A DNA stretch of 64,000 bases, from positions 46,374 to 110,373 of the forward strand of contig DYNZ01000001.1 of the NCBI GenBank assembly GCA_020720805.1, written 5' to 3'. The notes below the pieces were generated by a model. It worked only from the letters and a program-made list of their open reading frames with translations, was not told the origin of the DNA and did no database searches. Position numbers and translations under genes: made by a program. The first letter of the stretch is position 1, and every line of letters begins with the position of its first letter. Below are positions 5,528 to 54,223 of the stretch, in pieces. The stretch is from Leptospira biflexa (GTDB lineage: Bacteria > Spirochaetota > DYNZ01).

Positions 5528-6349
5528 ATGGAACTCTTTGCTACTAGTGTAAGCTGGAATATAAACCGGTACTGTAATTATAAATGCAGTTACTGCACTC
5601 AGCAGGATGATAAACTGAAAGGACAGGATGTTTCCGACTTTCGTCCATTTTTAGATGCATTTCGACAACTTATCGGACCAATTGAAGTAAAAATCTCCGG
5701 AGGAGAGCCTTTCTTGTATCCGGATTTTTTGCAAATGTGCAGAGAAATGCGCGAAAGGCATTTCTATATTTCAATTGTAACAAATTTTTCTGCTCAAGTA
5801 GAGAACCTTTTTGATTTTCTCGATGTAGTGGGAGATCTTCTCCAAGTTTTTTCTGCTAGCCTTCACCTTGAATATGCTGATCCTGGGGAATTTTTAGCCA
5901 AGGCACTCCAGTTTAAGCAAAAAATGGCGGCAAATTCATCCTTTGTCGTGACCTCTGTTGCGTCTCCGCGTCATTTGACAGAGCTCAATAAGATAGGTCG
6001 AATTTTTTTAGATCATGGTGTTCGTTTTAATTTACAACCATTAAAGTATCATGGGTCTATTATTACGTATACACAAAAGGAATCAGAAATTCTAAATTTT
6101 TTTGGAGGGCATAACCGAACTGGAAAAATTTGCAATAATTTCTTCGGTAGACCATGCAAAGCTGGCATTAACTACTTTGTGGTTGGTCCCACTGGCGATG
6201 TGTGGCGATGTTATCAGGCTAAAAAAGAGCGAAAAGAGTATTTAGGAAATATTCTTCAAGGCAGTTTCATGCCTTACACTGAAATTCATGATTGTATCTA
6301 CCACTATTGCCCATGTACTGTTCCCATAGAAAGAAAGATGATTTTGTAG
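5528..6349 (+). CDS. Radical SAM protein with C-terminal Cys-rich (SPASM/Twitch-like) region
   Basis: CNYKCSYC, SGGEPF, CKAG..GDVWRC..C..CPC. Confidence 0.88.
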   Translation: MELFATSVSWNINRYCNYKCSYCTQQDDKLKGQDVSDFRPFLDAFRQLIGPIEVKISGGEPFLYPDFLQMCREMRERHFYISIVTNFSAQVENLFDFLDVVGDLLQVFSASLHLEYADPGEFLAKALQFKQKMAANSSFVVTSVASPRHLTELNKIGRIFLDHGVRFNLQPLKYHGSIITYTQKESEILNFFGGHNRTGKICNNFFGRPCKAGINYFVVGPTGDVWRCYQAKKERKEYLGNILQGSFMPYTEIHDCIYHYCPCTVPIERKMIL

Positions 6350-6360
6350 GTTATTCCAAA

Positions 6361-7773
6361 ATGAATTATAAATGCACCATTCCTGCCGAATTATTGCAAT
6401 CTCCAGTAGCGCAGGGAGCTATTTTTATTTTAGAAAGATTGGAAAATGCGGGATATGAGGCATATTGGGCGGGAGGTGCTGTTAGAGATTTCATTCTTAA
6501 AAAAAAACCACATGATATCGATATTGCTACGAGTGCTCGTCCTGAACAGGTGGTACAAATATTTAGGAAAACTATTCCGGTTGGTGTCCAATTTGGGGTC
6601 ATCATTGTGCTGGTAAAGGGCTTTTCTTATGAAGTAGCAACCTTTCGCAATGATGGACAGTATTTAGATGGAAGAAGACCTGAAAATGTCACTTTTTCTT
6701 CGGCGCGGGAGGATGCCAACAGGCGTGATTTTACGATCAATGGCCTATTTTTTCATCCTCGGTCTCAGGAAATAATTGATTATGTGAATGGGCTTGTCGA
6801 TCTGCAAGGTGGTCTAATTCGAACTATCGGTAGCGCACATGAACGATTTCATGAGGATAAATTGCGAATATTACGCGCTCCTCGCTTTTCGCTGCAATTG
6901 GGATTTTCCATAGAAGCGGAAACCAAAAAGGCGATTCAGGAAATGGCAAAATCTGTCCAAATTGTTTCCCAGGAAAGAATAACAGAAGAATTAAAAAAAA
7001 TATTTTCTGGATCTAAACCCTATCAAGCTGCTTCATTATTACAGGAATTAAATCTTTTAGAGGTACTTTTTCCCTTTATGGGACAATTGCGGGTTGCTGA
7101 CCTTCAGCATGGATTCTGGCAATTGGAACAAAGAAAAATTTCTACGGAGAATCAAGCCACATTATTTGATCATGTATTAGGTTCGCTTCTATCGCTAGAA
7201 GAGATGTATCAGCAAAGAAACTATCTGGACATTTTTCAAGATTCGAAAAATAACTATCCTTTTCTTCTTGTTCTTGGTTTACTATTGCAACATTATTCAG
7301 AAATTCATGATAAGGGAAATGGAACTATGGATCAAGCAAAGAACCCTTTTCTGGATTTAGAAAAAAAATTAGGGACATACAAATTATCAAATAAAGAAAA
7401 GCAGGTTGTAATTGAGCTTCTTAAGGCAAGGAATGAATTTCACCTATGGACTAAAGCCAGAGTTGCGCAAAGAAAACGCTGGATTCGGGATCCGCTATTC
7501 AGCTATAAAATTATTTTCTATTTAAGTCGATTTTCCTTTATTTCATACGATAAAAACTTACTCTCTTTTATTTTAGAAGAAAAAATGAAATATAGTGATG
7601 CGGAGCTGAATCCTATTCCTCTGCTATCAGGAAGCGATTTAATTGAAATGGGATACACTCCTGGTCCTAAGTTCGCTGAGGATTTGATGGCTTTAGAAAA
7701 TGAGCAGCTCGAATCAACAATTCATGACCGCCAGGAGGCGCTTGCATTCATAAGAAAAAGGCGAGGTATTTAA
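6361..7773 (+). CDS. cca: CCA tRNA nucleotidyltransferase (class II)
   Basis: GGAVRD, DIDIAT, EVATFR, RRDFTING, EDKLRILRAPRF, SQERI. Start at MNYKC. Confidence 0.9.
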   Translation: MNYKCTIPAELLQSPVAQGAIFILERLENAGYEAYWAGGAVRDFILKKKPHDIDIATSARPEQVVQIFRKTIPVGVQFGVIIVLVKGFSYEVATFRNDGQYLDGRRPENVTFSSAREDANRRDFTINGLFFHPRSQEIIDYVNGLVDLQGGLIRTIGSAHERFHEDKLRILRAPRFSLQLGFSIEAETKKAIQEMAKSVQIVSQERITEELKKIFSGSKPYQAASLLQELNLLEVLFPFMGQLRVADLQHGFWQLEQRKISTENQATLFDHVLGSLLSLEEMYQQRNYLDIFQDSKNNYPFLLVLGLLLQHYSEIHDKGNGTMDQAKNPFLDLEKKLGTYKLSNKEKQVVIELLKARNEFHLWTKARVAQRKRWIRDPLFSYKIIFYLSRFSFISYDKNLLSFILEEKMKYSDAELNPIPLLSGSDLIEMGYTPGPKFAEDLMALENEQLESTIHDRQEALAFIRKRRGI

Positions 7774-7776
7774 ACA

Positions 7777-8184
7777 TTGGAAGTAAAGGTAATTTTACAA
7801 AAAATAATTGCTATCATGGTTGGCGGTGCATTCGGAGCCATGAGCCGATATGGTCTTACATTGCTGGTTCGCTCTAATTTTAAAAACAGCATTTTTCCTT
7901 ATGGTACTCTTACTGTAAATGTGCTAGGGGCATTACTATTTGGATTTTTTTGGGCAATTTTTTTTAAGTACAGCGATATCCAGGTCTGGCGACATTTTGT
8001 ACTCATTGGATTTCTTGGTTCGCTCACGACCTTCTCCTCCTATACTTTTGATCTTTTTGTTATGATAAAACAAGGACACTATACCGCTGCTGCCCTTTAT
8101 TTTATTCTAAGTAATGTTATCTGTTTGGTGGGTTTTTTTTTAGCATTTTTTTTTACAGAAAAAATGCTAAAATCACTGACTTGA
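7777..8184 (+). CDS. crcB: Fluoride efflux channel FluC/CrcB
   Basis: GGAFGAMSRY, PYGTLTVNVLG, GFLGSLTTFSSY. Confidence 0.93.
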   Translation: MEVKVILQKIIAIMVGGAFGAMSRYGLTLLVRSNFKNSIFPYGTLTVNVLGALLFGFFWAIFFKYSDIQVWRHFVLIGFLGSLTTFSSYTFDLFVMIKQGHYTAAALYFILSNVICLVGFFLAFFFTEKMLKSLT

Positions 8185-8189
8185 TTTCC

Positions 8190-9167
8190 TTAAAAAATAT
8201 CGAGTGCAGCATAGGTGATGATCGCGGTAGCACCGGCTCGTTTTATTGCAAATAGACTCTCTAGCATGACAGCAGATCCGTCAAAAAGCTGAAGTCTGTC
8301 CCCATGCTGAATCATGGCGTATTCTCCACTAACCTGATATGCAAATATGGGATAAGAAAAATGGTTCTTGAGATCTTTGATTACGTCAAGATATGGCAAA
8401 GCTGGTTTTACCATTAGGAAATCGGCTCCCTCTTGGATGTCAAGCTCTGCTTCCCTAACAGCTTCCCAGGATCGGGTATATGGCATCTGGTATCCTTTTC
8501 TATCTCCAAAAGACGGAGCGGATTGAGCTGCATCCCGAAAAGGTCCATAGAAAGCTGAGGCATACTTTACGGAATAGGATAGGATACTGACATTCTGAAA
8601 TTCATTTTTATCAAGAGCGGAACGAATCGCCGCAACCATTCCATCCATCATTCCTGAAGGAGCAATCACATCAATGCCAGCTTGTGCATAAACTTTCGCA
8701 AAATTGGCAAGCCGCTGCAATGTTAGATCATTATCTACATCTCCATGTGATGTAAGAATGCCGCAATGTCCATGAGATGTATATTCACACAAACATAAAT
8801 CGGCAATAACTAACAAGGATTTTCCAAATCTTTTTTTTAAGAGAGTTGCGAATTTTGGCACGATAGCTGGTTCAACGTCTCCTGTGGACCCAATTTCATC
8901 TTTTTGTCGTGGTATTCCAAAAAGGATGACGGCAGGAATTTTTTTCTGGACAGCGTTTTCAGCTATCATCAACGCGCTGCTTATGTTATGAACAAAGACA
9001 CCCGGCATGGAGTTGACTTCTCGGGCATGTAAACCATCTTCCGGTAAGTTTTCATCCAAAAAAAGGGGCAACACCAGATCATTTGGAAGCAATTCGATAT
9101 CGCTGGTTAATCGACGCATGGCTTCCGAAGTTCGATAACGGCGCATTCTGGTAATGGGATAAAGCAT
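8190..9167 (-). CDS. hemB: Porphobilinogen synthase
   Basis: DLCLCEYTSHGHCG, APSGMMDG, KYASAFYGPFRDA, MVKPA, YQVSGEY. Start MLYPI with GAGG RBS. Confidence 0.97.
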   Translation of the reverse strand: MLYPITRMRRYRTSEAMRRLTSDIELLPNDLVLPLFLDENLPEDGLHAREVNSMPGVFVHNISSALMIAENAVQKKIPAVILFGIPRQKDEIGSTGDVEPAIVPKFATLLKKRFGKSLLVIADLCLCEYTSHGHCGILTSHGDVDNDLTLQRLANFAKVYAQAGIDVIAPSGMMDGMVAAIRSALDKNEFQNVSILSYSVKYASAFYGPFRDAAQSAPSFGDRKGYQMPYTRSWEAVREAELDIQEGADFLMVKPALPYLDVIKDLKNHFSYPIFAYQVSGEYAMIQHGDRLQLFDGSAVMLESLFAIKRAGATAIITYAALDIF

Positions 9168-9272
9168 GGATAACCTCACTTTTCAACTGTTAAGAAAGTG
9201 CTTGCAGACCGAATTTCGTGCAAGCGGAAAATTCGGCGGTTAGGACAAATTTATGGAAATGGATAAAAAAAT

Positions 9273-45365: not shown

Positions 45366-47489
45366 GTGGCTGATTTGCATGGGAATTTCGGTGAACAACG
45401 AGACCAGGAGTTTATTATTCCAGAATTTAAAAAGATAATCATTATCGACGCTCATGATACGATTCTCAAGAGGGATTTTAGCCGAACTCCACAAAATATT
45501 TTTCAGGATCCCCATGACCGGGATACAATTGTTTGGCAGCTAAGGGAAGGATTTCAAAATTTTCTCGATTATTTTGGGGCAATTAAAAAAATTAAAATCG
45601 TGATTAGCTCCGATGGCGACCAGGATCGTTTGAAAGAAATTTTCATCAGGTTTGGTATTTTTAAGCAATTTGATGCGATTTATGGATTCAAACATATTCA
45701 TAAAGAGACCTACTTAAAGCAACTGGATCAGATCCTTGCTGATTTTCACATGGAGCCTCGAGATGCTGTTTTCATAGGAGATAGTAAGATCGACGCCTAT
45801 TCTGCCCAAAAGTATGGAGTCGATTTTATTTCTGTGCCGAATACCGTTTCAGACAGACATTTTTCTTTTAACTCATTCCTGCATATCCGTTTTACAAGAC
45901 CTCCCTACGGACTGGAGTTACAAAGAATTATTAACATCAAACACATCTATCACAATCTTGCTTCCCCTGTCCTGGTAGAAATGGCGATCCAGCGCGGGGA
46001 AGGTGTTCTTTCGCATAAAGGGTCTTTGGTTGTTCACACGGGAGACATCTCATCGCATTTATTAAAAGGACGTTACATTGTTAAAGAACCAAGCACAGAA
46101 CATAGAGTCACTTGGGATACAAGTGATTTTCATCCCCTTGATCCAGATAATTTTAATATCTTATTTTTACGTTTAAAAGCTTTTTTACAGGATCGTGAGA
46201 TTTTTATCCAGGACTGCTATGTTGGCTCTGACCCTGATCACTGTATGCCGCTTCGCATTATAACCCAGACAGCCTGGCATGGTTTATTTGCCAGAAATAT
46301 GTTTATTCAAGCAAGCAAAGAGCAGATGGAGGATTATTTTCCTGAGTACACCATTATCCATGTTCCCCATTTTAAGGCGATACCGGAGGTGGATGGTACT
46401 AGCGCTGAGGCCTTTGTGATTGTGCATCTGGTTAAGAAGGTTGTGTTAATCGGCGGCACTCATTATGGCGGTGAAATCCGCAGGGCAGTAAATACTCTGA
46501 TAAGTTTCTTTTATATTCAGGAAGATATCTTACCTGTAAAATTTTCTTCCAATATTGGTCGCAACCATGATTTAGCTGTTTTTTGGGGAGAGCCAAACAT
46601 TCGAAAAAGTTCGGTAAGCTTGGATTCCGAGAGAGATTTTTTTGGAGATGCCTATCATGGTTGGACTGAAAATCATATATTTAACCTTGAATGGGGATGT
46701 TATATTCCGGTTTCCAATCTTACTAAAAACACAAATCCATTTTTATATGAATCAGTTCATACTTTTTCCACCATCCTGGAAAATGTAAAAATTAACAAGG
46801 AAAGACGTACAGATTTTCATGCGGAGATTTATGAAAATCCAAGAGCCTGCTTTCCCAAATCTCATTTTCGCTTTGTTGATCGAAGTGGAATCAGCGATCA
46901 TCCTAAAAATATTTTTATTTTTATGAAAGATGGCATGGGGATATTTCCGGCCATTTCCAGAATTAGCCGGGCTCAGGGAGCCTTTTATCTCTTTATGGGA
47001 TATAACTCTGATAGGATTTTTGACCTTAAGGAGACAGAAAGCTCCCATAGATTCCGGTTTCAGCCTTTTTTTAACGATAACCCTTTTACCTTTCCGCCGG
47101 TTGTGTATGCTTTGCACGTCTGGGAAAAGATGGAGCGAAGTCTGGCGCAATGTTGGCTAATAAATTACTCCCATGTAGGCCACCTAAGCAGCCCGAACTG
47201 TTGGCATACTGATGAAAGAATCAGTGATTTGATCAAGTACGTTTTGCAAGATGAGTTTGAGGCGGATAAATGGATATTTGATCCGGTGTGGGGGTTTGAG
47301 GTACTAAAATCGTGGCCACGGGCAGAACAGAATGTTCCTTCATCGCTTTTACCTGTAGATATATGGGACGAGCGCAGCCTTTTTTTGATATGGCGCAGGC
47401 ATTTGATAGCCAGGTTTCATAAAAATCTTGATCCATACAAGCGCGATCTCGATCCGGAGATAGTGGATGCCTCTCCGACTGCTGAATAG
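45366..47489 (+). CDS. HAD-like domain fused to a degenerate ATP-dependent PEP carboxykinase domain
   Basis: N-terminal IIIDAHDTIL...FIGDSKID. C-terminal PckA scaffold (HNLASPVLVE, AWHGLFARNMFI, LIGGTHYGGEI, HGW..IFNLE.GCY, ILENV, EN.R, HPKNI) with eroded active-site motifs. GTG start with GGAGG RBS. Confidence 0.85.
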   Translation: MADLHGNFGEQRDQEFIIPEFKKIIIIDAHDTILKRDFSRTPQNIFQDPHDRDTIVWQLREGFQNFLDYFGAIKKIKIVISSDGDQDRLKEIFIRFGIFKQFDAIYGFKHIHKETYLKQLDQILADFHMEPRDAVFIGDSKIDAYSAQKYGVDFISVPNTVSDRHFSFNSFLHIRFTRPPYGLELQRIINIKHIYHNLASPVLVEMAIQRGEGVLSHKGSLVVHTGDISSHLLKGRYIVKEPSTEHRVTWDTSDFHPLDPDNFNILFLRLKAFLQDREIFIQDCYVGSDPDHCMPLRIITQTAWHGLFARNMFIQASKEQMEDYFPEYTIIHVPHFKAIPEVDGTSAEAFVIVHLVKKVVLIGGTHYGGEIRRAVNTLISFFYIQEDILPVKFSSNIGRNHDLAVFWGEPNIRKSSVSLDSERDFFGDAYHGWTENHIFNLEWGCYIPVSNLTKNTNPFLYESVHTFSTILENVKINKERRTDFHAEIYENPRACFPKSHFRFVDRSGISDHPKNIFIFMKDGMGIFPAISRISRAQGAFYLFMGYNSDRIFDLKETESSHRFRFQPFFNDNPFTFPPVVYALHVWEKMERSLAQCWLINYSHVGHLSSPNCWHTDERISDLIKYVLQDEFEADKWIFDPVWGFEVLKSWPRAEQNVPSSLLPVDIWDERSLFLIWRRHLIARFHKNLDPYKRDLDPEIVDASPTAE

Positions 47490-47498
47490 CGGTGATAT

Positions 47499-48845
47499 AT
47501 GATACTTCAAGAAAAAATTGTTCAGGTCTATAATCAGGTTTCGAGTCTCTTATCTTTGGATGATCCTGAAATGCAGGTTCACATGGTGGTCAAACATCAT
47601 AAGGGAGAAGAACGGTTGTTTGATAGTTTTGTGCATGATCTCTATCTGCTGCGCTATAAAGGAGACCTCTTTATAGCAAAGGAGGAGAGCGTGTATGAAA
47701 ATATTAATCACTGCTCCTACGATTTCCGTAGTTTTTTTCACTTTGTGCATTCAGTATTTAATGTTGGGGATTATAGCACTCCTTATTGGACCTATTATGG
47801 CACGGACGAGGATGGCCAGAAACAGGAAATTCAGTTTGTCTACTGGCAGCTTTTAGAAAAGCAGCATGTCCTAAAGCAGCTGTCGGATGATATAGAAGAT
47901 AAGGAGATTGATGATCCTGTTATATTAAATTTATTTCAGATTTACCTTCAGAAAAAAAGAAGCCTGATCCAGGTAGACGGAGAAATTTATACGGATATAT
48001 ACAATCAGCATGGTCGGGATGTTGTCAACGAGGTGCTGGCTTCTGCTGTAGGGCAGATGCTGGATATTAAAGTTCCGATAAATTTTTTTGGAATGCAGAA
48101 TGTCGAATTTCAGCAGCCTTTCTCCCGGCTGGAGCAGGGGGATGTCATTCAAGGGGTACGTCGCTTTTCCTTGACCAAATCAATCTGTAATGATTTTCCC
48201 TGTCTCTCATTTTTTCAGGATTTGTATATGGAAATCTATAAAGACAAGGCCTTAGAAGAGCTTCGTCTTGATTTAACTAAAGTATGGCATCGTGGCAACC
48301 CCTTTCATTTTTTTCTGGATGGAGAGAACAAGGATGCCAAAATCTCCCAATTTCGCCAGACGCTACAGCCCTGGATACGCTCCCATTACCCGAATTATCT
48401 TGATTTTATTGATTCCGATATTCTGGATCGATTTTTAGGAGCGTATGACGACAGAAAAATTCAGGAGTTTTTACTGTATCAGGGATCGGATGGAAATATT
48501 TTTACTGTAGATTACGGTGAGATATTATTTCCCCAATTGGGACTCGATAGTCAGGATATTCGGTTTATCACCAAGCAGCATGAATTCGTGCAGAAATTTT
48601 TAGCCTATTGTGAAGAGGTTCTGAATTCCGAAGATTTGATGTATCGAAAGCACCTTCTGCTTTTTTTGGAAAAACTAAACCATTTGCCAGAAGATTTCTT
48701 TGAAGGTTTAATCTCCAGAATGCCAAAGTTTTTTTTTCAATACCACTGGGATAATCATAAATTGAGTTATCGTCCTGATACCATCGTCTCTTTTTTCCAG
48801 TATTATATGTCCGAGATTCGTAACCATTTGGGTACTTATGTATAA
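47499..48845 (+). CDS. Hypothetical protein with HipA-like atypical kinase motifs
   Basis: VNEVLASAVGQMLDIKVP; LDRFLGAYDDRKIQEFLL...FTVDYG; 9 bp after the upstream gene. Confidence 0.55.
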   Translation: MILQEKIVQVYNQVSSLLSLDDPEMQVHMVVKHHKGEERLFDSFVHDLYLLRYKGDLFIAKEESVYENINHCSYDFRSFFHFVHSVFNVGDYSTPYWTYYGTDEDGQKQEIQFVYWQLLEKQHVLKQLSDDIEDKEIDDPVILNLFQIYLQKKRSLIQVDGEIYTDIYNQHGRDVVNEVLASAVGQMLDIKVPINFFGMQNVEFQQPFSRLEQGDVIQGVRRFSLTKSICNDFPCLSFFQDLYMEIYKDKALEELRLDLTKVWHRGNPFHFFLDGENKDAKISQFRQTLQPWIRSHYPNYLDFIDSDILDRFLGAYDDRKIQEFLLYQGSDGNIFTVDYGEILFPQLGLDSQDIRFITKQHEFVQKFLAYCEEVLNSEDLMYRKHLLLFLEKLNHLPEDFFEGLISRMPKFFFQYHWDNHKLSYRPDTIVSFFQYYMSEIRNHLGTYV

Positions 48846-48858
48846 CTATAAGCTTTTT

Positions 48859-51264
48859 TTACCTGTAGATGCCTAATTCAGAGCTGTCTGCTGAATCGAT
48901 GCCGGTGAAAAGCATTCCCTGTCCCTCTTTACCTCGTTCAAAGAAACCGTCTGGAGCAAAGCCTTCCCATACCTCGCGTAGAGCCTCCCAGAGCATATCC
49001 AGGTAGGCCTCATAATCATACTTTACTGTTTCTGGATTTTTTAGATACACGACCTCTTCTGCCTGGTATCTCTGGGATGGGTTTTTGTGGCGTTTAGCCA
49101 GGATTAGGTACCTGAGCTTTTCTCCTGGTTGAACTTCAATCGAAAAATTTTGCAGTTGCTGCAATGATAAAGCCGTAGCGTTTTCAACGGTATAGCTTTC
49201 CAGCTCTTTGCCTACAGTTTTACGCAGCAGTAGCTCTTGCCAGGGTACCTGTCGTGCTCTAAGTAGCGCGTCATACTTTCGATAAATCAATTCTATCTGT
49301 GGATGCAGCTCGCGCAGTTCAGCAATACCTGTTTTTTGCTGCATGAGAGACAGCATCTCCCATTGCGCCTTACGGATGAAGAGGGGAATGTCTTTGCGCC
49401 GCACCATGATACCGCGCACTTTGATCTCGCCACTGAAAAGACGGCCAAAATAGCGGTTAGAGACAGGGTCTTTTTTGTCCATTTTTGAGGGAGAAAATAC
49501 CAGCCAGGTAAAAAAGCCGTCTATTCCCATCTCGATGCCTGTTACCTGTCTGATCTCCGTGCAAAGAAGCTTAATCTCTTTGTCAATGTCCTCCTGACGG
49601 ATTTTCTTTTTTTTTTGAATAAAGATACTGTCTGTAATGGCATTGATTAGAAAGAACCCTCTTTTTTCTGCCAGCTCTTTGGCCTGTAGTAGCTTTTCCC
49701 GGCCAAAAGCGGTAACAGATTCATGGCTCTCCAGGCGGCCAAACTTGGCATTGCGGTAGCCAAGATAACCAAAAGAGGTGACTAGAAGCCATTTTATGGA
49801 TCTTTGCCGGGCATCAGCAATCTCTCTCTCCTGTTGACTAATCGAGATATCCTTGCTTCTTTGTTTCAGCCAACGCCGGCGCTGTAGAATGTCGGTTAAC
49901 GCCTGGCTCACGACACCTTTTCGTTTTATACAGATATGATAGCCTGCTTCAGGAACACGGGGGGCATCTTGCTCGTTAGCGCAGCAGCGGCATAGCACAG
50001 TCTCCGGTGAAATGTTGTGCATTACCATAATGGAGGGGTACATCTGGGCAAAGTCAAGCTGGTACACACCTTCAAAAACAAAGCCATTACGGATGTCCGG
50101 TTCAAAAACCAGCCCCCCTTTGTCGATCTGCAGTAGCTCATAGGCTGTCTTCGCCTCCTCCACGCTACTCTTTTGCCAGGGAACCAGATAATCCTGCTCC
50201 AAAGCCACCTTTATTTCCATATAGGTCAGAGCATTGCCTGTTGAAGCTCTGGCCATTTTTTGTACAGGCAGACGGCTCATGCGCGCCAGCTCTAAAATTC
50301 CGTACAATTCACTCTCCTTGTACACAAAGCTGTTGGCGCTGTCAATATGCCATCTGCCAAACAGCGGATAGGAGGGAGCCCGGTAGATCATATTTCCATA
50401 GCTGTTGTAACTGCTGCCCCTGGTAATGATCTTTCTAACAGTTCTGCCTGGATCACGATCCAGCTTAAGGGGCAATCTACTTTTCTGAGCCATGGAAAAA
50501 AAGGCAGGGAAAAGAATTTGATCTCCAAATGATGATAGAATGACGTCAGGGTCATGATCCGTAAGCAATTGGTTGAGCTTGCGGATAAATGCATCTGGTG
50601 CAGAAAAGGTAAGGACGTACTCTTTTTTGTCAGGTGTCTGCACGCGTAGAGGGTTATCTGGGCTTAAACCAAGCCTGTGGCTTTTTGTAAGTTGCATAGA
50701 AAGAGTGCGCAGTGGAGGTAAGCTGTACTCCTGGAGTTTTGGATCTTCGATTACCTTTATCTGCATCAGCCTATTGTTTTGAGGGGTAGCCAGAGAGAGG
50801 CGGCTATCCAGTTTCAACCAGTCAGCTCTAATTTTCGCCAGCGGAAAGATGCCTTTATGGAGCATATAATGGGAGGGAATATCGATATCGCTGTGATAGA
50901 TATCAAGTTTGTCGATAAAATGATAAATTTTACTGTAGATGGTGCGCAGAAATGAGGCTTTTTGAAATTGCAGAGCCAGTACATGGATCCAGCGGTTTTC
51001 ATAAAAGTGTTTTTTCTGTTTGGGGGTCGGCTTGCTGGCGAGCACATGCAACTCCAGTAAACGCCTGACAAGTTTGTGCATGGTCTCTTTATCGCCTGCA
51101 ATATAGATCTCTGGAAAGAACTGATCCGTAAGAGCTATAGCTTTGCCATTGTCGTCAAGAATCCACAGGTATATCAAATCTTCAAAATGATACACATCAA
51201 AGAGATAACCTACCGTAGATATGACATTACGGTGGTCGAATAGGTGGGTGTTAGACAGCATCAT
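48859..51264 (-). CDS. B-family DNA polymerase, PolB2-like, exonuclease-degenerate
   Basis: Motif A LDFAQMYPSIM, motif B KWLLVTSFGYLG, motif C AITDSIF, NRYFG, VRGIMVRR. True start likely MMLSNT (51264), overlapping the upstream stop. Confidence 0.92.
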   Translation of the reverse strand: MMLSNTHLFDHRNVISTVGYLFDVYHFEDLIYLWILDDNGKAIALTDQFFPEIYIAGDKETMHKLVRRLLELHVLASKPTPKQKKHFYENRWIHVLALQFQKASFLRTIYSKIYHFIDKLDIYHSDIDIPSHYMLHKGIFPLAKIRADWLKLDSRLSLATPQNNRLMQIKVIEDPKLQEYSLPPLRTLSMQLTKSHRLGLSPDNPLRVQTPDKKEYVLTFSAPDAFIRKLNQLLTDHDPDVILSSFGDQILFPAFFSMAQKSRLPLKLDRDPGRTVRKIITRGSSYNSYGNMIYRAPSYPLFGRWHIDSANSFVYKESELYGILELARMSRLPVQKMARASTGNALTYMEIKVALEQDYLVPWQKSSVEEAKTAYELLQIDKGGLVFEPDIRNGFVFEGVYQLDFAQMYPSIMVMHNISPETVLCRCCANEQDAPRVPEAGYHICIKRKGVVSQALTDILQRRRWLKQRSKDISISQQEREIADARQRSIKWLLVTSFGYLGYRNAKFGRLESHESVTAFGREKLLQAKELAEKRGFFLINAITDSIFIQKKKKIRQEDIDKEIKLLCTEIRQVTGIEMGIDGFFTWLVFSPSKMDKKDPVSNRYFGRLFSGEIKVRGIMVRRKDIPLFIRKAQWEMLSLMQQKTGIAELRELHPQIELIYRKYDALLRARQVPWQELLLRKTVGKELESYTVENATALSLQQLQNFSIEVQPGEKLRYLILAKRHKNPSQRYQAEEVVYLKNPETVKYDYEAYLDMLWEALREVWEGFAPDGFFERGKEGQGMLFTGIDSADSSELGIYR

Positions 51265-51514
51265 CTGCCGTAGGATCCAGTTGCCTGCGCAGCTCGTTGA
51301 TCTGTTTTTGCTGTTCAATGAGAATTGCCAGCAAAATGGAATCGATCGGATTAGGGTTGGCTGCCATGACTCCAGCCTGCACATTAAATTTTGCATGACG
51401 AAACAGTTCATCAAAAATGAGCTGATCTTCCTTGCGCAAAGCTCGACGAAAATTCTGCAATCGTCTTCGGATGATTTGTAGCTGCATGGAATACGGTGTA
51501 ACAGTCCTGCCCAT
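51251..51514 (-). CDS. Small helical PolB2-associated protein (arCOG07300-like)
   Basis: 87 aa MGRTVTPYS..FRRALRKEDQLIFDELF..A..P...ILIEQQKQI; sits between the RadA-like gene and polB. Confidence 0.8.
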   Translation of the reverse strand: MGRTVTPYSMQLQIIRRRLQNFRRALRKEDQLIFDELFRHAKFNVQAGVMAANPNPIDSILLAILIEQQKQINELRRQLDPTADDAV

Positions 51515-51515
51515 A

Positions 51516-52163
51516 TCACGATACCCAGGTTGATGGATTTGAAAGTGCTTTTTTTGAGGTCTGGATTTTTAGATATACCGCGTTCTTTTTTTCTACCGCC
51601 TGCAGGCTCCAATGGGTATCAGCCATCTTTTGCATTTTGGGAAAAAAAGCAGCAAAGGTAGGATGATGATAGGTATGTTTTTCCACCAGTACCAGCGGTA
51701 TGCGCTTTTGCTGTATTAGAGACAGTTTGCCTAGCAGTTTGGTAAGCAGGAATTTACCTTCAGCCGCACCAACATCTCCGTCGAAAAACTGCTTGGTTGG
51801 GCTAAGGATGAAATAGACATACGAACTGCTGTGAGTAAGGATCTCATTCATGGTCGTCAGCAGTTGGTAGGGTGTGAAGTCGCGACGTATCTTGATCCCT
51901 GATAGAATACGGTCAACATCATGACCATGTCGGATAATTTCGTCTGCTAAGGAAAAGATCTGAAAACGGATAGCGCAATCTATCACATATACGGGAATAT
52001 CCTGCATTGCCAGATGGGCAATCCAGAGATGAGCCAGAGAAAAAGCGCCTTTATCTCCACTGAGCAATCCAAGCTCGCGTCGGGAGCATGCATCCATGAT
52101 CTCCGTCGTATGAGACTGAATCGCCACGGGCTTAGTTTGTATTCTCCACATAAGAGCCTCCAT
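51516..52163 (-). CDS. Inactivated RadA/RecA-fold protein (ImuA-analogous)
   Basis: Degenerate P-loop LLSGDKGAFS, VYVIDCAIRF, IKIRRDFTPYQL; no intact Walker A or B. Confidence 0.72.
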   Translation of the reverse strand: MEALMWRIQTKPVAIQSHTTEIMDACSRRELGLLSGDKGAFSLAHLWIAHLAMQDIPVYVIDCAIRFQIFSLADEIIRHGHDVDRILSGIKIRRDFTPYQLLTTMNEILTHSSSYVYFILSPTKQFFDGDVGAAEGKFLLTKLLGKLSLIQQKRIPLVLVEKHTYHHPTFAAFFPKMQKMADTHWSLQAVEKKNAVYLKIQTSKKALSNPSTWVS

Positions 52164-52178
52164 CGGGCATCAATATGT

Positions 52179-52260
52179 CACAATTATCCTGTGTAAACAA
52201 ATAAAAACACAAAAAAATTGTATTTTTGTTGCCTTGGATGTAACAATCATTATTATTGTT
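52179..52260. promoter_or_regulatory. Divergent promoter region with candidate operators
   Basis: CACA-N7-TGTG (52179-52193), CACA-N7-TGTA (52208-52222), AACAAT-N7-ATTGTT (52242-52260). Confidence 0.45.
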
Positions 52261-52262
52261 CT

Positions 52263-53024
52263 ATGAATCATCGATTGAAACAGGCACTTCATGATTTAGG
52301 TGTTAAAAACCGAGAGGCTGCCCAACTTTTTGGTGTTACACCCAACGCAGTCACGGAAACACTTAAGGGGCGTACAAAAAATATTCCCATTGCATGGCTG
52401 CGAATTCTATCTCAAAATTATCAGATTGATATCCACTGGCTAATTACAGGAGAGGGTACTATGTTGCGTCAGCATTCTGCGGCGCAGGATTGTCAGGTAA
52501 CTTCTCTTCTCGATAACCTCCAGGAGGAAGAGCAGGATCTTCTCTTGGAATACCTTTCGTTTCTTCGTTTTCGCAAACGCCAATCAATTCAGGAAAGTGT
52601 GGCGTCTGGGGCTGCCGAGAAAAGCGATTTTATCCATGTTCCGCTATTAGGCCATATAGCTGCAGGTACTCCGATCTTGGCTGATGAAAATTGCGAAGCA
52701 CACCTGCCGATAGCAAAAAAGCTTCTTCCTCGAAAAGGGCGCTATTTTGCACTCCGTGTCCAGGGAGATAGCATGATAGGAGCCGATATCCAGGATGGGG
52801 ATATCGTTTTTTTAGATGCGGACTACTCCTTTTCTCAACTGCGCAATCGTGATATTGTAGCTGTCTTAATTGATCAGGAGGCGACTCTAAAATTCTATAG
52901 CAAAGATCGGAACCAGATTATCCTGCTTCCGGCTAATCCCGCTTACCGTAGTATCAACCTTCAAGAGGAGGATAATCCGTGTATCCTTGGCAAGATGGTA
53001 GGACTTTATCGCCAAAAACAATAA
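52263..53024 (+). CDS. XRE-HTH + S24 peptidase self-cleaving repressor (CI/LexA-like)
   Basis: N-terminal XRE HTH ending IHWLITGEG; VPLLGHIAAG cleavage site, RVQGDSM (Ser), EATLK (Lys). Start MNHRL. Confidence 0.9.
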   Translation: MNHRLKQALHDLGVKNREAAQLFGVTPNAVTETLKGRTKNIPIAWLRILSQNYQIDIHWLITGEGTMLRQHSAAQDCQVTSLLDNLQEEEQDLLLEYLSFLRFRKRQSIQESVASGAAEKSDFIHVPLLGHIAAGTPILADENCEAHLPIAKKLLPRKGRYFALRVQGDSMIGADIQDGDIVFLDADYSFSQLRNRDIVAVLIDQEATLKFYSKDRNQIILLPANPAYRSINLQEEDNPCILGKMVGLYRQKQ

Positions 53025-53263: not shown

Positions 53264-53452
53264 ATGAAATTTGAAAGGGATAAAGAAAAAAGCCAGATAA
53301 ATCAAGAGAAGCATGGTGTCGGCTTTGATGTGGCGCAGCTTGCATTTCCGGGCAAGCAGAGAATTATTCTACAAGAAAAGTTGCACAGCGATCAAGAAGA
53401 GCGTTTTTATTGCAGTGTAACAAAAATGAATAAGTTTAAAAATGCGTCTTAG
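53264..53452 (+). pseudogene. Truncated BrnT-family toxin
   Basis: MKFERDKEKSQINQEKHGVGF..A..F...HSDQEERF matches the BrnT N-terminus. The C-terminal RIISAR strand and BrnA are absent. Confidence 0.7.
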
Positions 53453-53747
53453 CAAAGGAAATATTACAGCAATTAAAACAGCTCTTCATAAATTTTTTGG
53501 AAATGATATTGAGATATATTTGTTTGGCTCAAGGGTTAATGACCAGGCTAAAGGTGGCGACGTTGATTTATTAATAGAAATCAGCCCTGGTATTACAGAT
53601 GTGCAAAAGAAAAAACTTCAGGCAATAACAGAGATGCAGCTTTCGATAGGAGAACAAAAAATTGATCTGGTTATTTCCTATAAGGGAGATTTGGACAAGC
53701 AGCCATTGGTTGTAAGTATTGCCAAAAAGGAGGGTATATTGCTGTGA
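53442..53747 (+). CDS. Minimal nucleotidyltransferase (MNT) antitoxin
   Basis: IYLFGSRVNDQAKGGDVDLLI, KIDLV. Confidence 0.9.
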   Translation: MRLSKGNITAIKTALHKFFGNDIEIYLFGSRVNDQAKGGDVDLLIEISPGITDVQKKKLQAITEMQLSIGEQKIDLVISYKGDLDKQPLVVSIAKKEGILL

Positions 53748-54223
53748 GTAATTTGGATAGAATAAAGATAGAGTCAGCCTTACAGGAGTGCTCTTCTCAT
53801 GTTCATAAAATAGAGCGCTCTCAAAAATTATTAAAAGAGTTCTTTCCTTTAGCAGAAAAATCTTTAACTGATTTTACCGAAGATAATATTGAACATATCG
53901 ACCAATTTATATACAGGTTTACCAAGTTGCAAGATGCTCTTGGATTAAGATTAATTCCTAGCATTTATAATTTTATTGAAAATGATAATACCCCCAAGCC
54001 TTTTTTAGATATACTGAACCGTCTTGAAAAATTGCAAATCATTCCGGATGTTGAAGAGTGGCAAATGTTTAGAAATTTACGCAATAATTTAGCCCATGAT
54101 TATCCCGGTAGCGCCAGACAAACTGCCGAAACATTAAATCTCCTCTATGGTGAAATTCATAAAATGATTTCCATCTATAAGACTATCTCCAATTATTATT
54201 ATCATCTTATAAATCTACAGTAG
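53744..54223 (+). CDS. HEPN-domain RNase toxin
   Basis: DQFIYRFTKLQD, RNLRNNLAHDY (Rx4HxY); GTGA overlap with the MNT gene. Confidence 0.88.
   Translation: MSNLDRIKIESALQECSSHVHKIERSQKLLKEFFPLAEKSLTDFTEDNIEHIDQFIYRFTKLQDALGLRLIPSIYNFIENDNTPKPFLDILNRLEKLQIIPDVEEWQMFRNLRNNLAHDYPGSARQTAETLNLLYGEIHKMISIYKTISNYYYHLINLQ

Follow-up and report, generated by a model that had tools for sequence, protein, structure and literature searches.

A bacterial PolB2 mutasome-type operon with a divergent CI/XRE-type S24 repressor gene in Leptospira biflexa

The stretch of DNA analysed here (the window) comprises 64,000 nucleotides of Leptospira biflexa (GenBank assembly GCA_020720805.1, contig DYNZ01000001.1, positions 46,374 to 110,373 of the forward strand); coordinates given without a locus name refer to it. 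Between 48859 and 53024, the list of open reading frames (ORFs) and the sequence place three co-oriented minus-strand genes, in the order iRadA-PPB2-PolB2, opposite a plus-strand gene for a repressor with a helix-turn-helix (HTH) and an S24 domain. The locus is probably a bacterial PolB2 ('G2') mutasome operon with a dedicated divergent repressor that acts as a damage switch. By analogy, its products would most likely form a damage-derepressed, clamp-tethered extender polymerase complex without proofreading; we infer RecA*-induced derepression, co-transcription and mutagenic synthesis at the locus. The triad and its lexA neighbourhood have been published before, and the locus thus adds a member to a known operon family.

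The linkage of PolB2, an inactivated RadA and arCOG07300 was described in archaea and 'several bacterial genomes'; in certain bacteria, e.g. Leptospirillum ferriphilum, the predicted operon was noted to include lexA (Makarova, Krupovic and Koonin 2014, PMC4104785). The partners were named iRadA and PPB2 by Timinskas, Timinskas and Venclovas (2025, PMC11791011). In the main text of that study, iRadA-PPB2-PolB2 is the only order given for bacteria, lexA is enriched in bacterial neighbourhoods, and a PolB2-iRadA-(PPB2)3 heteropentamer is modelled. Also described there are an MGRT arm on PPB2, a D(K/R) loop motif and, in either PolB2 or iRadA, motifs for binding the beta clamp; the same main text makes no mention of Leptospira. 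A 2026 survey places these enzymes in group G2/PolB2, with an inactive exonuclease (PMC12926913).

The three-gene operon and its polymerase

The iRadA gene (51516 to 52163, minus strand) encodes a protein of 215 amino acids with a RadA/Rad51-core fold that lacks the Walker A motif and the N-terminal domain. It is followed by the PPB2 gene (51251 to 51514, minus strand; arCOG07300-type), whose helical product of 87 amino acids starts MGRTVTPYSMQL, has an N-terminal MGRT arm and contains FRRALRKEDQ, and by the PolB2 gene (48859 to 51264, minus strand; ATG at 51264, stop at 48859) for a family-B DNA polymerase of 801 amino acids. A GGAGG lies 5 nt upstream of the iRadA ATG, a 1-bp gap at 51515 separates iRadA from PPB2, and the PolB2 ATG overlaps the end of the PPB2 gene by 14 nt. 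The longest ORF for PolB2 has 917 codons from a TTG, and its extra N-terminus crosses both upstream genes. The three genes are translationally coupled. An earlier sequence-only reading of this DNA had described three tightly coupled minus-strand genes; coordinates, gap and overlap were as described, and its naming of the triad as inactive RadA, arCOG07300/PPB2 and PolB2 agreed with the sequence-level defining features tested.

PolB2 matches the DNA_pol_B model of Pfam (PF00136, E = 5.6e-36). The palm motifs are LDFAQMYPS (D404), K491 and AITDS (I543-T544-D545). In an alignment of 33 PolB2 homologues, D404 (motif A), K491, T544, D545 and D381 are invariant, and I543 and K382 are at least 90% conserved. 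With I543 conserved in AITDS, the DxD motif reads ITD, like the published IxD forms in which the first Asp is absent, e.g. IID in S. islandicus (PMC11791011). D381-K382 constitutes the D(K/R) loop motif; D269-R270 was considered for this role and rejected, since conservation and the co-fold interface described below point to D381-K382. No exonuclease-domain model of Pfam matched at E <= 0.1. The ExoII segment GDNF(D/A)FP of a Pyrococcus PolB chain aligns with GDQILFP, with Leu at the Asp position, and the ExoI and ExoIII positions were judged by eye only. As judged from the sequence, PolB2 is without a proofreading exonuclease active site.

Placement of the enzyme was based on model scores and alignments. 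The best solved structures were archaeal PolBs (5mdn, E = 2.9e-42), and E. coli Pol II was not among the 60 best solved relatives; searched alone, the N-terminal third of PolB2 reached Pol II only at E = 0.66. NCBIfam models of Pol II scored 38-52 bits against cut-offs of 570-1435, whereas the best archaeal-type model scored 355 bits, yet short of the 516 bits set as its cut-off. The outcome that the sequence-only reading had named as speaking against it, a grouping with E. coli Pol II, was thus not seen. E. coli DNA polymerase II is likewise a family-B polymerase of a bacterium, and its clamp-binding C-terminus may have a counterpart here, but it has proofreading activity, works as one subunit and falls in another clade, while the polymerase of the locus has no exonuclease site and lies far under the Pol II cut-offs.

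Four cysteines just past motif A (C425, C427, C428 and C445; 49930-49992, residues 425-445) are invariant in the 33 PolB2 sequences and may form a metal site; the main text of PMC11791011 does not mention cysteines or zinc.

A role other than translesion synthesis was weighed, in which the protein would be non-catalytic, for instance an inactivated scaffold in replication restart or a factor in origin-related regulation. Replacement of the first Asp of DxD and loss of the exonuclease site would suit such a role, and PolB2 was long predicted to be inactive, with a part in replication initiation under discussion (PMC4104785). Against this stand the invariance of the metal ligands D404 and D545, of the motif B Lys and of most palm residues in the 33 sequences, and the linkage to LexA and SRAP genes, which points to a damage response. 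Moreover, an archaeal PolB2 that shares this IxD has been reported to be active, and damage-induced mutagenesis to depend on it (PMC11791011, PMC7390963, PMC8764526). A non-translesion role is regarded as very improbable.

The iRadA and PPB2 proteins matched no Pfam or NCBIfam model. The AlphaFold2 model of iRadA, made with a 40-sequence alignment, had a mean predicted local distance difference test (pLDDT) score of 88. All matches listed in a Foldseek search of the PDB were DMC1/RadA/RAD51 or RAD51-paralog chains (best E = 4.3e-9, TM 0.61), and in a profile search of PDB sequences RadA/Rad51/DMC1 accounted for 26 of the 27 matches at E <= 10 (best 7.9e-4). The Walker A position reads SGDKGAFS, without GK[ST], and among 40 homologues only G36 is invariant there. 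Thus, by its model, iRadA is a RadA core fold without a P-loop, as the sequence-only reading had proposed in calling it a RecA/RadA-fold protein with a dead P-loop. In PPB2, residues M1, G2, R3, T4, Y8 and S9 are invariant in 36 homologues. Its AlphaFold2 model is all-helical (mean pLDDT 80), with residues 1-7 devoid of regular structure as a free N-terminal arm, and the protein matches phrog_26583 (E = 1.1e-18).

PolB2 residues 1-780 and iRadA were co-folded with a separate alignment for each. The pair scored 0.63 against 0.00 for the best control. Among solved complexes 58 of 80 attained this value, and among mismatched pairs 2 of 110 did so; as the alignments were our own, this calibration holds only roughly. 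The runs shared at least 87% of contacts, with partner pLDDT of at least 77. The confident contacts of PolB2 with iRadA are residues 364-378, directly ahead of D381-K382, and in published models the iRadA-binding element is placed just before the D(K/R) loop motif (PMC11791011). iRadA is thus predicted to bind PolB2 at 364-378 as in those models. Searches of the PDB found no solved structure of a PolB2-iRadA complex.

The C-terminal QGMLF of PolB2 (782-786) aligns with QxxLPF of relatives. Of 72 complete PolB2 tails, 45 contain the loose pattern Qxx[LMIF]x?F, as do 7 iRadA tails; these 7, from the Turneriella group and related metagenome-assembled genomes (MAGs), terminate in QM[QE]F[AYS]F. 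As a beta-clamp-binding motif, QGMLF is suggestive only.

In the proposed mechanism, PolB2 and iRadA would assemble with a trimer of PPB2, and the complex would dock on the beta clamp through QGMLF and extend synthesis past lesions or mismatches in an error-prone manner, as for Sulfolobus Dpo2, which is induced by damage and on which error-prone tolerance and extension depend (PMC7390963, PMC8764526). Dpo2 of Sulfolobus islandicus, the only member with experimental work behind it, is likened to the present enzyme by motifs alone (Ile-x-Asp, no proofreading), which put both in the same polymerase group; it is archaeal, is not under an S24 repressor and uses PCNA, not the beta clamp. ImuA-ImuB-DnaE2 and UmuD'2C-RecA (Pol V) follow the same logic, in which an error-prone polymerase of several subunits is tied to the SOS response and has a RecA-fold accessory protein, but their polymerases belong to families C and Y, unrelated to PolB2, and the likeness is one of analogy only. 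The closest likeness is with the prokaryotic PolB2 mutasome operons themselves: they share the order of the genes, the IxD of the palm, the loss of the exonuclease site, the DK loop and the predicted iRadA-binding element ahead of it, a P-loop-less RadA core without N-terminal domain, a helical PPB2 of about 90 amino acids with an MGRT arm, and an adjoining S24 repressor gene; a clamp-type motif at the PolB2 C-terminus may be a further shared feature.

The divergent repressor and its control region

The repressor gene (52263 to 53024, plus strand) encodes 253 amino acids from the ATG, or 268 from a TTG at 52218. The ATG at 52263 (MNHRLKQ...) aligns with the start of the orthologue in a sister genus (genome G001) and is the more likely start. 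On this basis, the divergent intergenic region is 99 bp long (52164 to 52262, from the iRadA ATG at 52163 to the repressor ATG).

The protein matches Peptidase_S24 of Pfam (PF00717, E = 4.3e-28). Its N-terminus gave a weak Phage_CI_repr match (0.003, under the cut-off) and weak HTH matches, and no match to PF01726 (LexA_DNA_bind). The LexA model TIGR00498 was matched at profile positions 78-202 only, i.e. in the S24 half, with 106 bits against a cut-off of 110.95, and residues 3-251 match phrog_4, 'transcriptional repressor' (E = 4.4e-37). AAG, GDSM and TLK align with the cleavage-site, Ser and Lys positions of E. coli LexA chains; the A134-G135 site and S170 and K210 are kept in the G001 orthologue. 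When 1.84 billion representatives were searched with the N-terminal 125 amino acids, 252 relatives were found at E <= 0.001, only 3 of them at E <= 1e-10, one being the repressor itself. When 10 of the 150 listed relatives were inspected with Pfam, all carried HTH_3, HTH_19 or a CI-type HTH and two also S24. A word-index protein search with the same 125 residues found the repressor alone. From these sequence features, the protein is a CI/XRE-type HTH-S24 protein, predicted to be autoproteolytic, and not LexA. The head-to-head XRE-type S24 repressor of the sequence-only reading is thereby borne out in its domain match and in its position across the 99 bp. A canonical LexA (LexA_DNA_bind PF01726 + S24) is encoded on another contig (C374), next to ftsZ, and a recA gene is present in the same genome.

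When 301 genomes of the phylum were searched with the repressor, 220 had a match; nearly all the matches listed cover the S24 half only, 114 of the 220 lying outside those listed. Among the matches listed there was one strong full-length match, with 42% identity, in G001, the other genome of the same family, where the gene again lies head to head with iRadA-PPB2-PolB2. With a sensitive S24 profile, 8 of 80 related loci (L061, L066, L069, L079, L082, L091, L093 and L094; Turneriella group and related MAGs) were seen to contain an S24 gene. All 8 are canonical lexA genes divergent upstream of iRadA. The position is thus recurrent, while the protein that occupies it, LexA or CI-type, differs. A tblastn search of 76 related loci with the window's repressor gave no matches, a search of low sensitivity given that the S24 profile later found LexA in 8. 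A metagenome scan with a two-repressor alignment returned 80 loci with matches in the S24 half only, none adjoining PolB2, PPB2 or iRadA.

Promoter-like sites are found on both strands of the intergenic region, by consensus match only. The site for the operon (52217 to 52246, minus strand) reads TTGTTA, 18 nt, TACAAT, and that for the repressor (52229 to 52256, plus strand) TTGCCT, 16 nt, TATTAT. The latter ends 6 nt ahead of the repressor ATG, so the repressor mRNA may be leaderless. Candidate operator O1 (52204 to 52226; AAAACA-N11-TGTATTTT) lies over the predicted -10 box of the operon. The corresponding motif, AAAACA-N(7-10)-TGTATTTT, was defined by two direct repeats in the orthologous G001 intergenic region (L018 947-969 and 978-1000), and the whole 3.93-Mb genome has two copies, O1 and one near amtB. 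Candidate operator O2 (52243 to 52259) is a perfect palindrome, ACAAT-N7-ATTGT, over the operon -35 box and the repressor -10 box. It occurs once in the window against 0.15 expected, and 15 of 100 shuffles reach one copy; by itself the palindrome is weak evidence.

The CI/XRE-type protein would bind operators in the 99 bp, for which O1 and O2 over the -10 and -35 boxes are candidates, and when bound would shut off the operon and probably its own gene too. Upon DNA damage, RecA on single-stranded DNA would stimulate self-cleavage of the repressor at A134-G135 by S170/K210, and the operon would be derepressed. As canonical LexA is encoded elsewhere, the repressor of the locus would then serve the mutagenic polymerase alone as its damage switch. 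More tentatively, mutagenic PolB2 could in that case be induced separately from the other SOS functions, through an operator and possibly a cleavage threshold of its own.

Regulation of the operon by the HTH-S24 protein is considered rather likely. The link is drawn from the divergent arrangement, kept in G001 although the two repressors are only 42% identical; from canonical LexA at the same divergent position in the 8 loci, together with the published lexA-PolB2 linkage (PMC4104785, PMC11791011); and from the shared AAAACA-N-TGTATTTT motif over the -10 box, the intact S24 residues and the presence of recA. The kept arrangement, the LexA genes in that position and the published linkage also argue against a second reading, in which the PolB2 mutasome stands but is not regulated by the HTH-S24 protein, a relic of phage CI type or a regulator of other targets, with the operon under LexA in trans or not damage-regulated. 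What speaks for that reading is the full-length match of the repressor to a phage family (phrog_4), the mobile-type toxin-antitoxin genes to its right (a BrnT fragment and an MNT/HEPN pair), the presence of a canonical LexA, the absence of an adjacent S24 gene from most related operons, and candidate operators that are statistically weak or post hoc. Its phage component is countered by the surroundings: no phage structural, integrase or plasmid genes were found near the locus among the ORFs of the window and their Pfam matches, and the flanks hold phosphoenolpyruvate carboxykinase (PEPCK), ABC transporter and flagellin genes. As to LexA in trans, three direct TAGAAC copies stand upstream of the canonical lexA on C374; the genome has 7 TAGAAC clusters, none of them at the operon locus, and the intergenic region has a single GTTCTA. 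Overall, this alternative is rated unlikely, and a dedicated repressor remains the preferred interpretation.

Two further LexA-related words were set aside. The 10-mer ATAGAACAAT, common to the upstream region of the canonical lexA and the operon intergenic region, was not counted as evidence, having 11 copies genome-wide. The Leptospira LexA1 box is CTnnACnnnnGTnnAG (PMC4756842). Of the 61 regions upstream of operons, 14 contain it with up to one mismatch, compared with 51 among 1217 windows of background sequence, and these matches coincide with a conserved promoter-like element; the exact box was present in 1 of the 61.

Several results weigh against a PolB2 mutasome under a dedicated repressor. 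No S24 gene was found within the fetched flanks (up to 6 kb per side) of 72 of the 80 related loci, including most Leptospira operons, so the operon can do without a repressor gene beside it, and none was found within about 6-7 kb of three phage-borne copies. Seven promoter-like sites were found in the region against 8.0 expected from shuffles. The rarity of the O1 motif overstates its significance, as the motif was defined after both regions had been viewed, and O2 has 10 copies genome-wide, close to a rough base-composition estimate for chance. On the protein side, the placement of PolB2 comes from model scores and alignments, its interface with iRadA is a model prediction, and a fold search of the PDB with PPB2 gave nothing significant (best E = 2.1). 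No bench study of any bacterial PolB2, on expression, binding or activity, was found in the literature, and none of the listed sequencing runs that contain this DNA is recorded as RNA. The sequence-only reading called such cassettes largely uncharacterised in bacteria; gene order, lexA neighbourhood, a modelled heteropentamer and clamp motifs had been published more fully than it allowed (PMC4104785; PMC11791011; PMC12926913).

In the main texts of these publications the neighbour of PolB2 operons is called 'lexA', and supplementary tables may already include CI/XRE cases. The present repressor differs in having a CI/XRE-type HTH instead of the LexA winged helix and in coexisting with a canonical LexA. 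It resembles the non-canonical LexA of Bacteroidetes (Sanchez-Osuna et al. 2021, PMC8565304), which also joins a phage-CI-type HTH to an S24 self-cleaving domain over damage-response or error-prone polymerase genes; the main text of that study does not mention family-B polymerases. UmuDAb of Acinetobacter (PMC11332147) and a phage-type repressor of Francisella (PMC13148647) are further S24 regulators described as standing in for LexA. Those stand-ins are global or main regulators in lineages without LexA, whereas canonical LexA is present here. A role of the Bacteroidetes type, as main SOS regulator with a box across the regulon and no LexA, was not found: LexA is present, O2 occurs at chance level and O1 has one other copy. 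The candidate operator motifs lack a genome-wide spread, which suggests a local regulator.

Additional repeats were noted in related intergenic regions. In G001, the stretch that separates the repressor gene from iRadA has about nine GTCACAAT in tandem and five CAATTT (L018 775-882), possibly an operator array, or else a microsatellite where the assembly is of low quality. In the window, one GTCACAAT copy stands at 52177-52184. TAGAACA / TGTTCTA words are repeated in the lexA-iRadA intergenic regions of the four loci inspected (L061, L066, L079 and L082) and may be the LexA box of these lineages. Many Leptospira loci (e.g. L036, L041, L044, L049 and L051) have a conserved CTTTACA, about 17 nt, TATAGTAT, ending 3-7 nt before the iRadA ATG, an element that, by its sequence, looks like the promoter of a leaderless or nearly leaderless mRNA. 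Its -10 box is covered by a palindrome, TACTATA...TATAGTA.

Distribution in Leptospirales and in phages

In the phylum survey, 6 of 41 genomes matched at E <= 0.001, one of them weakly at 27% identity. A scan with one genome per species gave 76 loci, nearly all of which carry the labels Leptospira, Leptospiraceae, Turneriella or Leptonema. In this neighbourhood survey, of the kind suggested alongside the sequence-only reading, the complete triad stands in the same order at 66 of the 76 loci, and PPB2 begins MGRT in 64 of these 66. Of the other 10 loci, 6 are cut by a contig end, 1 is ambiguous and 3 have flanking sequence but are without one or both upstream genes. The operon is thus widely kept in Leptospirales, including species of the genus of leptospirosis agents.

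Individual loci depart from this pattern. In one of the 3 loci with flanking sequence but an incomplete triad, from a Spirochaetia MAG (L020 3717-5416), opposite-strand transposase genes replace iRadA and PPB2 upstream of an intact PolB2 gene. At the second PolB2 locus of another genome, G036 (L017 4169-4855), a gene for SRAP, an SOS-response-associated peptidase, directly follows PolB2 (PF02586, E = 2.1e-36); SRAP genes are reported in some PolB2 neighbourhoods (PMC11791011). In MAGs of Leptonemataceae and Leptospiraceae (L083, L085, L089 and L075), the PolB2 matches are split or 100-170 amino acids over the usual length, which suggests an insertion, possibly an intein, in those polymerase genes.

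The operon is also carried by temperate Leptospira phages. iRadA-PPB2-PolB is present in four LE1-like phage records (KF114879.1, KF114878.1, KF114880.1 and KX656785.1) and, in IMG/VR, in only two contigs (L197 and L198). In phage vB_LbrZ_5399-LE1 (L196, KF114879.1) the cassette lies at 5926-9182, and its polymerase is 47% identical to that of the window, with the AITDS and IDKGG motifs kept; identities of 47% and 46% were obtained for the phage and viral-contig polymerases. The phage PPB2 gene is seemingly annotated too short (55 amino acids).

The phage copies raise the alternative that the cassette serves a mobile element in its replication or maintenance, like the copies on LE1-like phage-plasmids; the present locus would be a remnant of such an element with its CI-type repressor. 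The existence of PHROG families for both iRadA and PPB2 is in keeping with this, as is the slightly higher G+C at the locus (0.44-0.45 against about 0.40 in the flanks). The flanks hold no other phage or plasmid genes, however, a plasmid collection searched with iRadA gave no match, the phage-borne copies are without a nearby S24 gene, and most copies are chromosomal and widely kept in Leptospirales. This explanation is given very little weight, less than any other considered.

Under the preferred interpretation, a chromosomal PolB2 mutasome with its own repressor, one operon is found in three control states: with canonical LexA in the Turneriella group, with a CI-type S24 repressor in the family of the window, and with no adjacent repressor in most Leptospira. 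As a tentative scenario, somewhat less than evenly probable, a CI-type S24 repressor took the place that canonical LexA has in Turneriellaceae and became a private switch beside LexA, while the cassette moves among spirochaetes on LE1-like phage-plasmids. The locus is compact, and with its own repressor and a 99-bp control region it is convenient to reconstitute.

Neighbouring genes

To the left, a 707-amino-acid ORF (45366-47489) has an N-terminal HAD-type hydrolase domain fused to ATP-dependent PEPCK. It is followed by a 448-amino-acid ORF (47499-48845) that converges on PolB2, with 13 nt between the stop codons; this ORF matched nothing in Pfam or PHROG, nor, by tblastn, in any of the 76 related loci. 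Directly to the right of the repressor, in 53264-54223, a truncated BrnT-type toxin ORF (62 amino acids, PF04365 exactly at the cut-off) overlaps the start of a nucleotidyltransferase gene, which is followed by a gene with weak HEPN-like matches, the two forming a pair of MNT/HEPN type.

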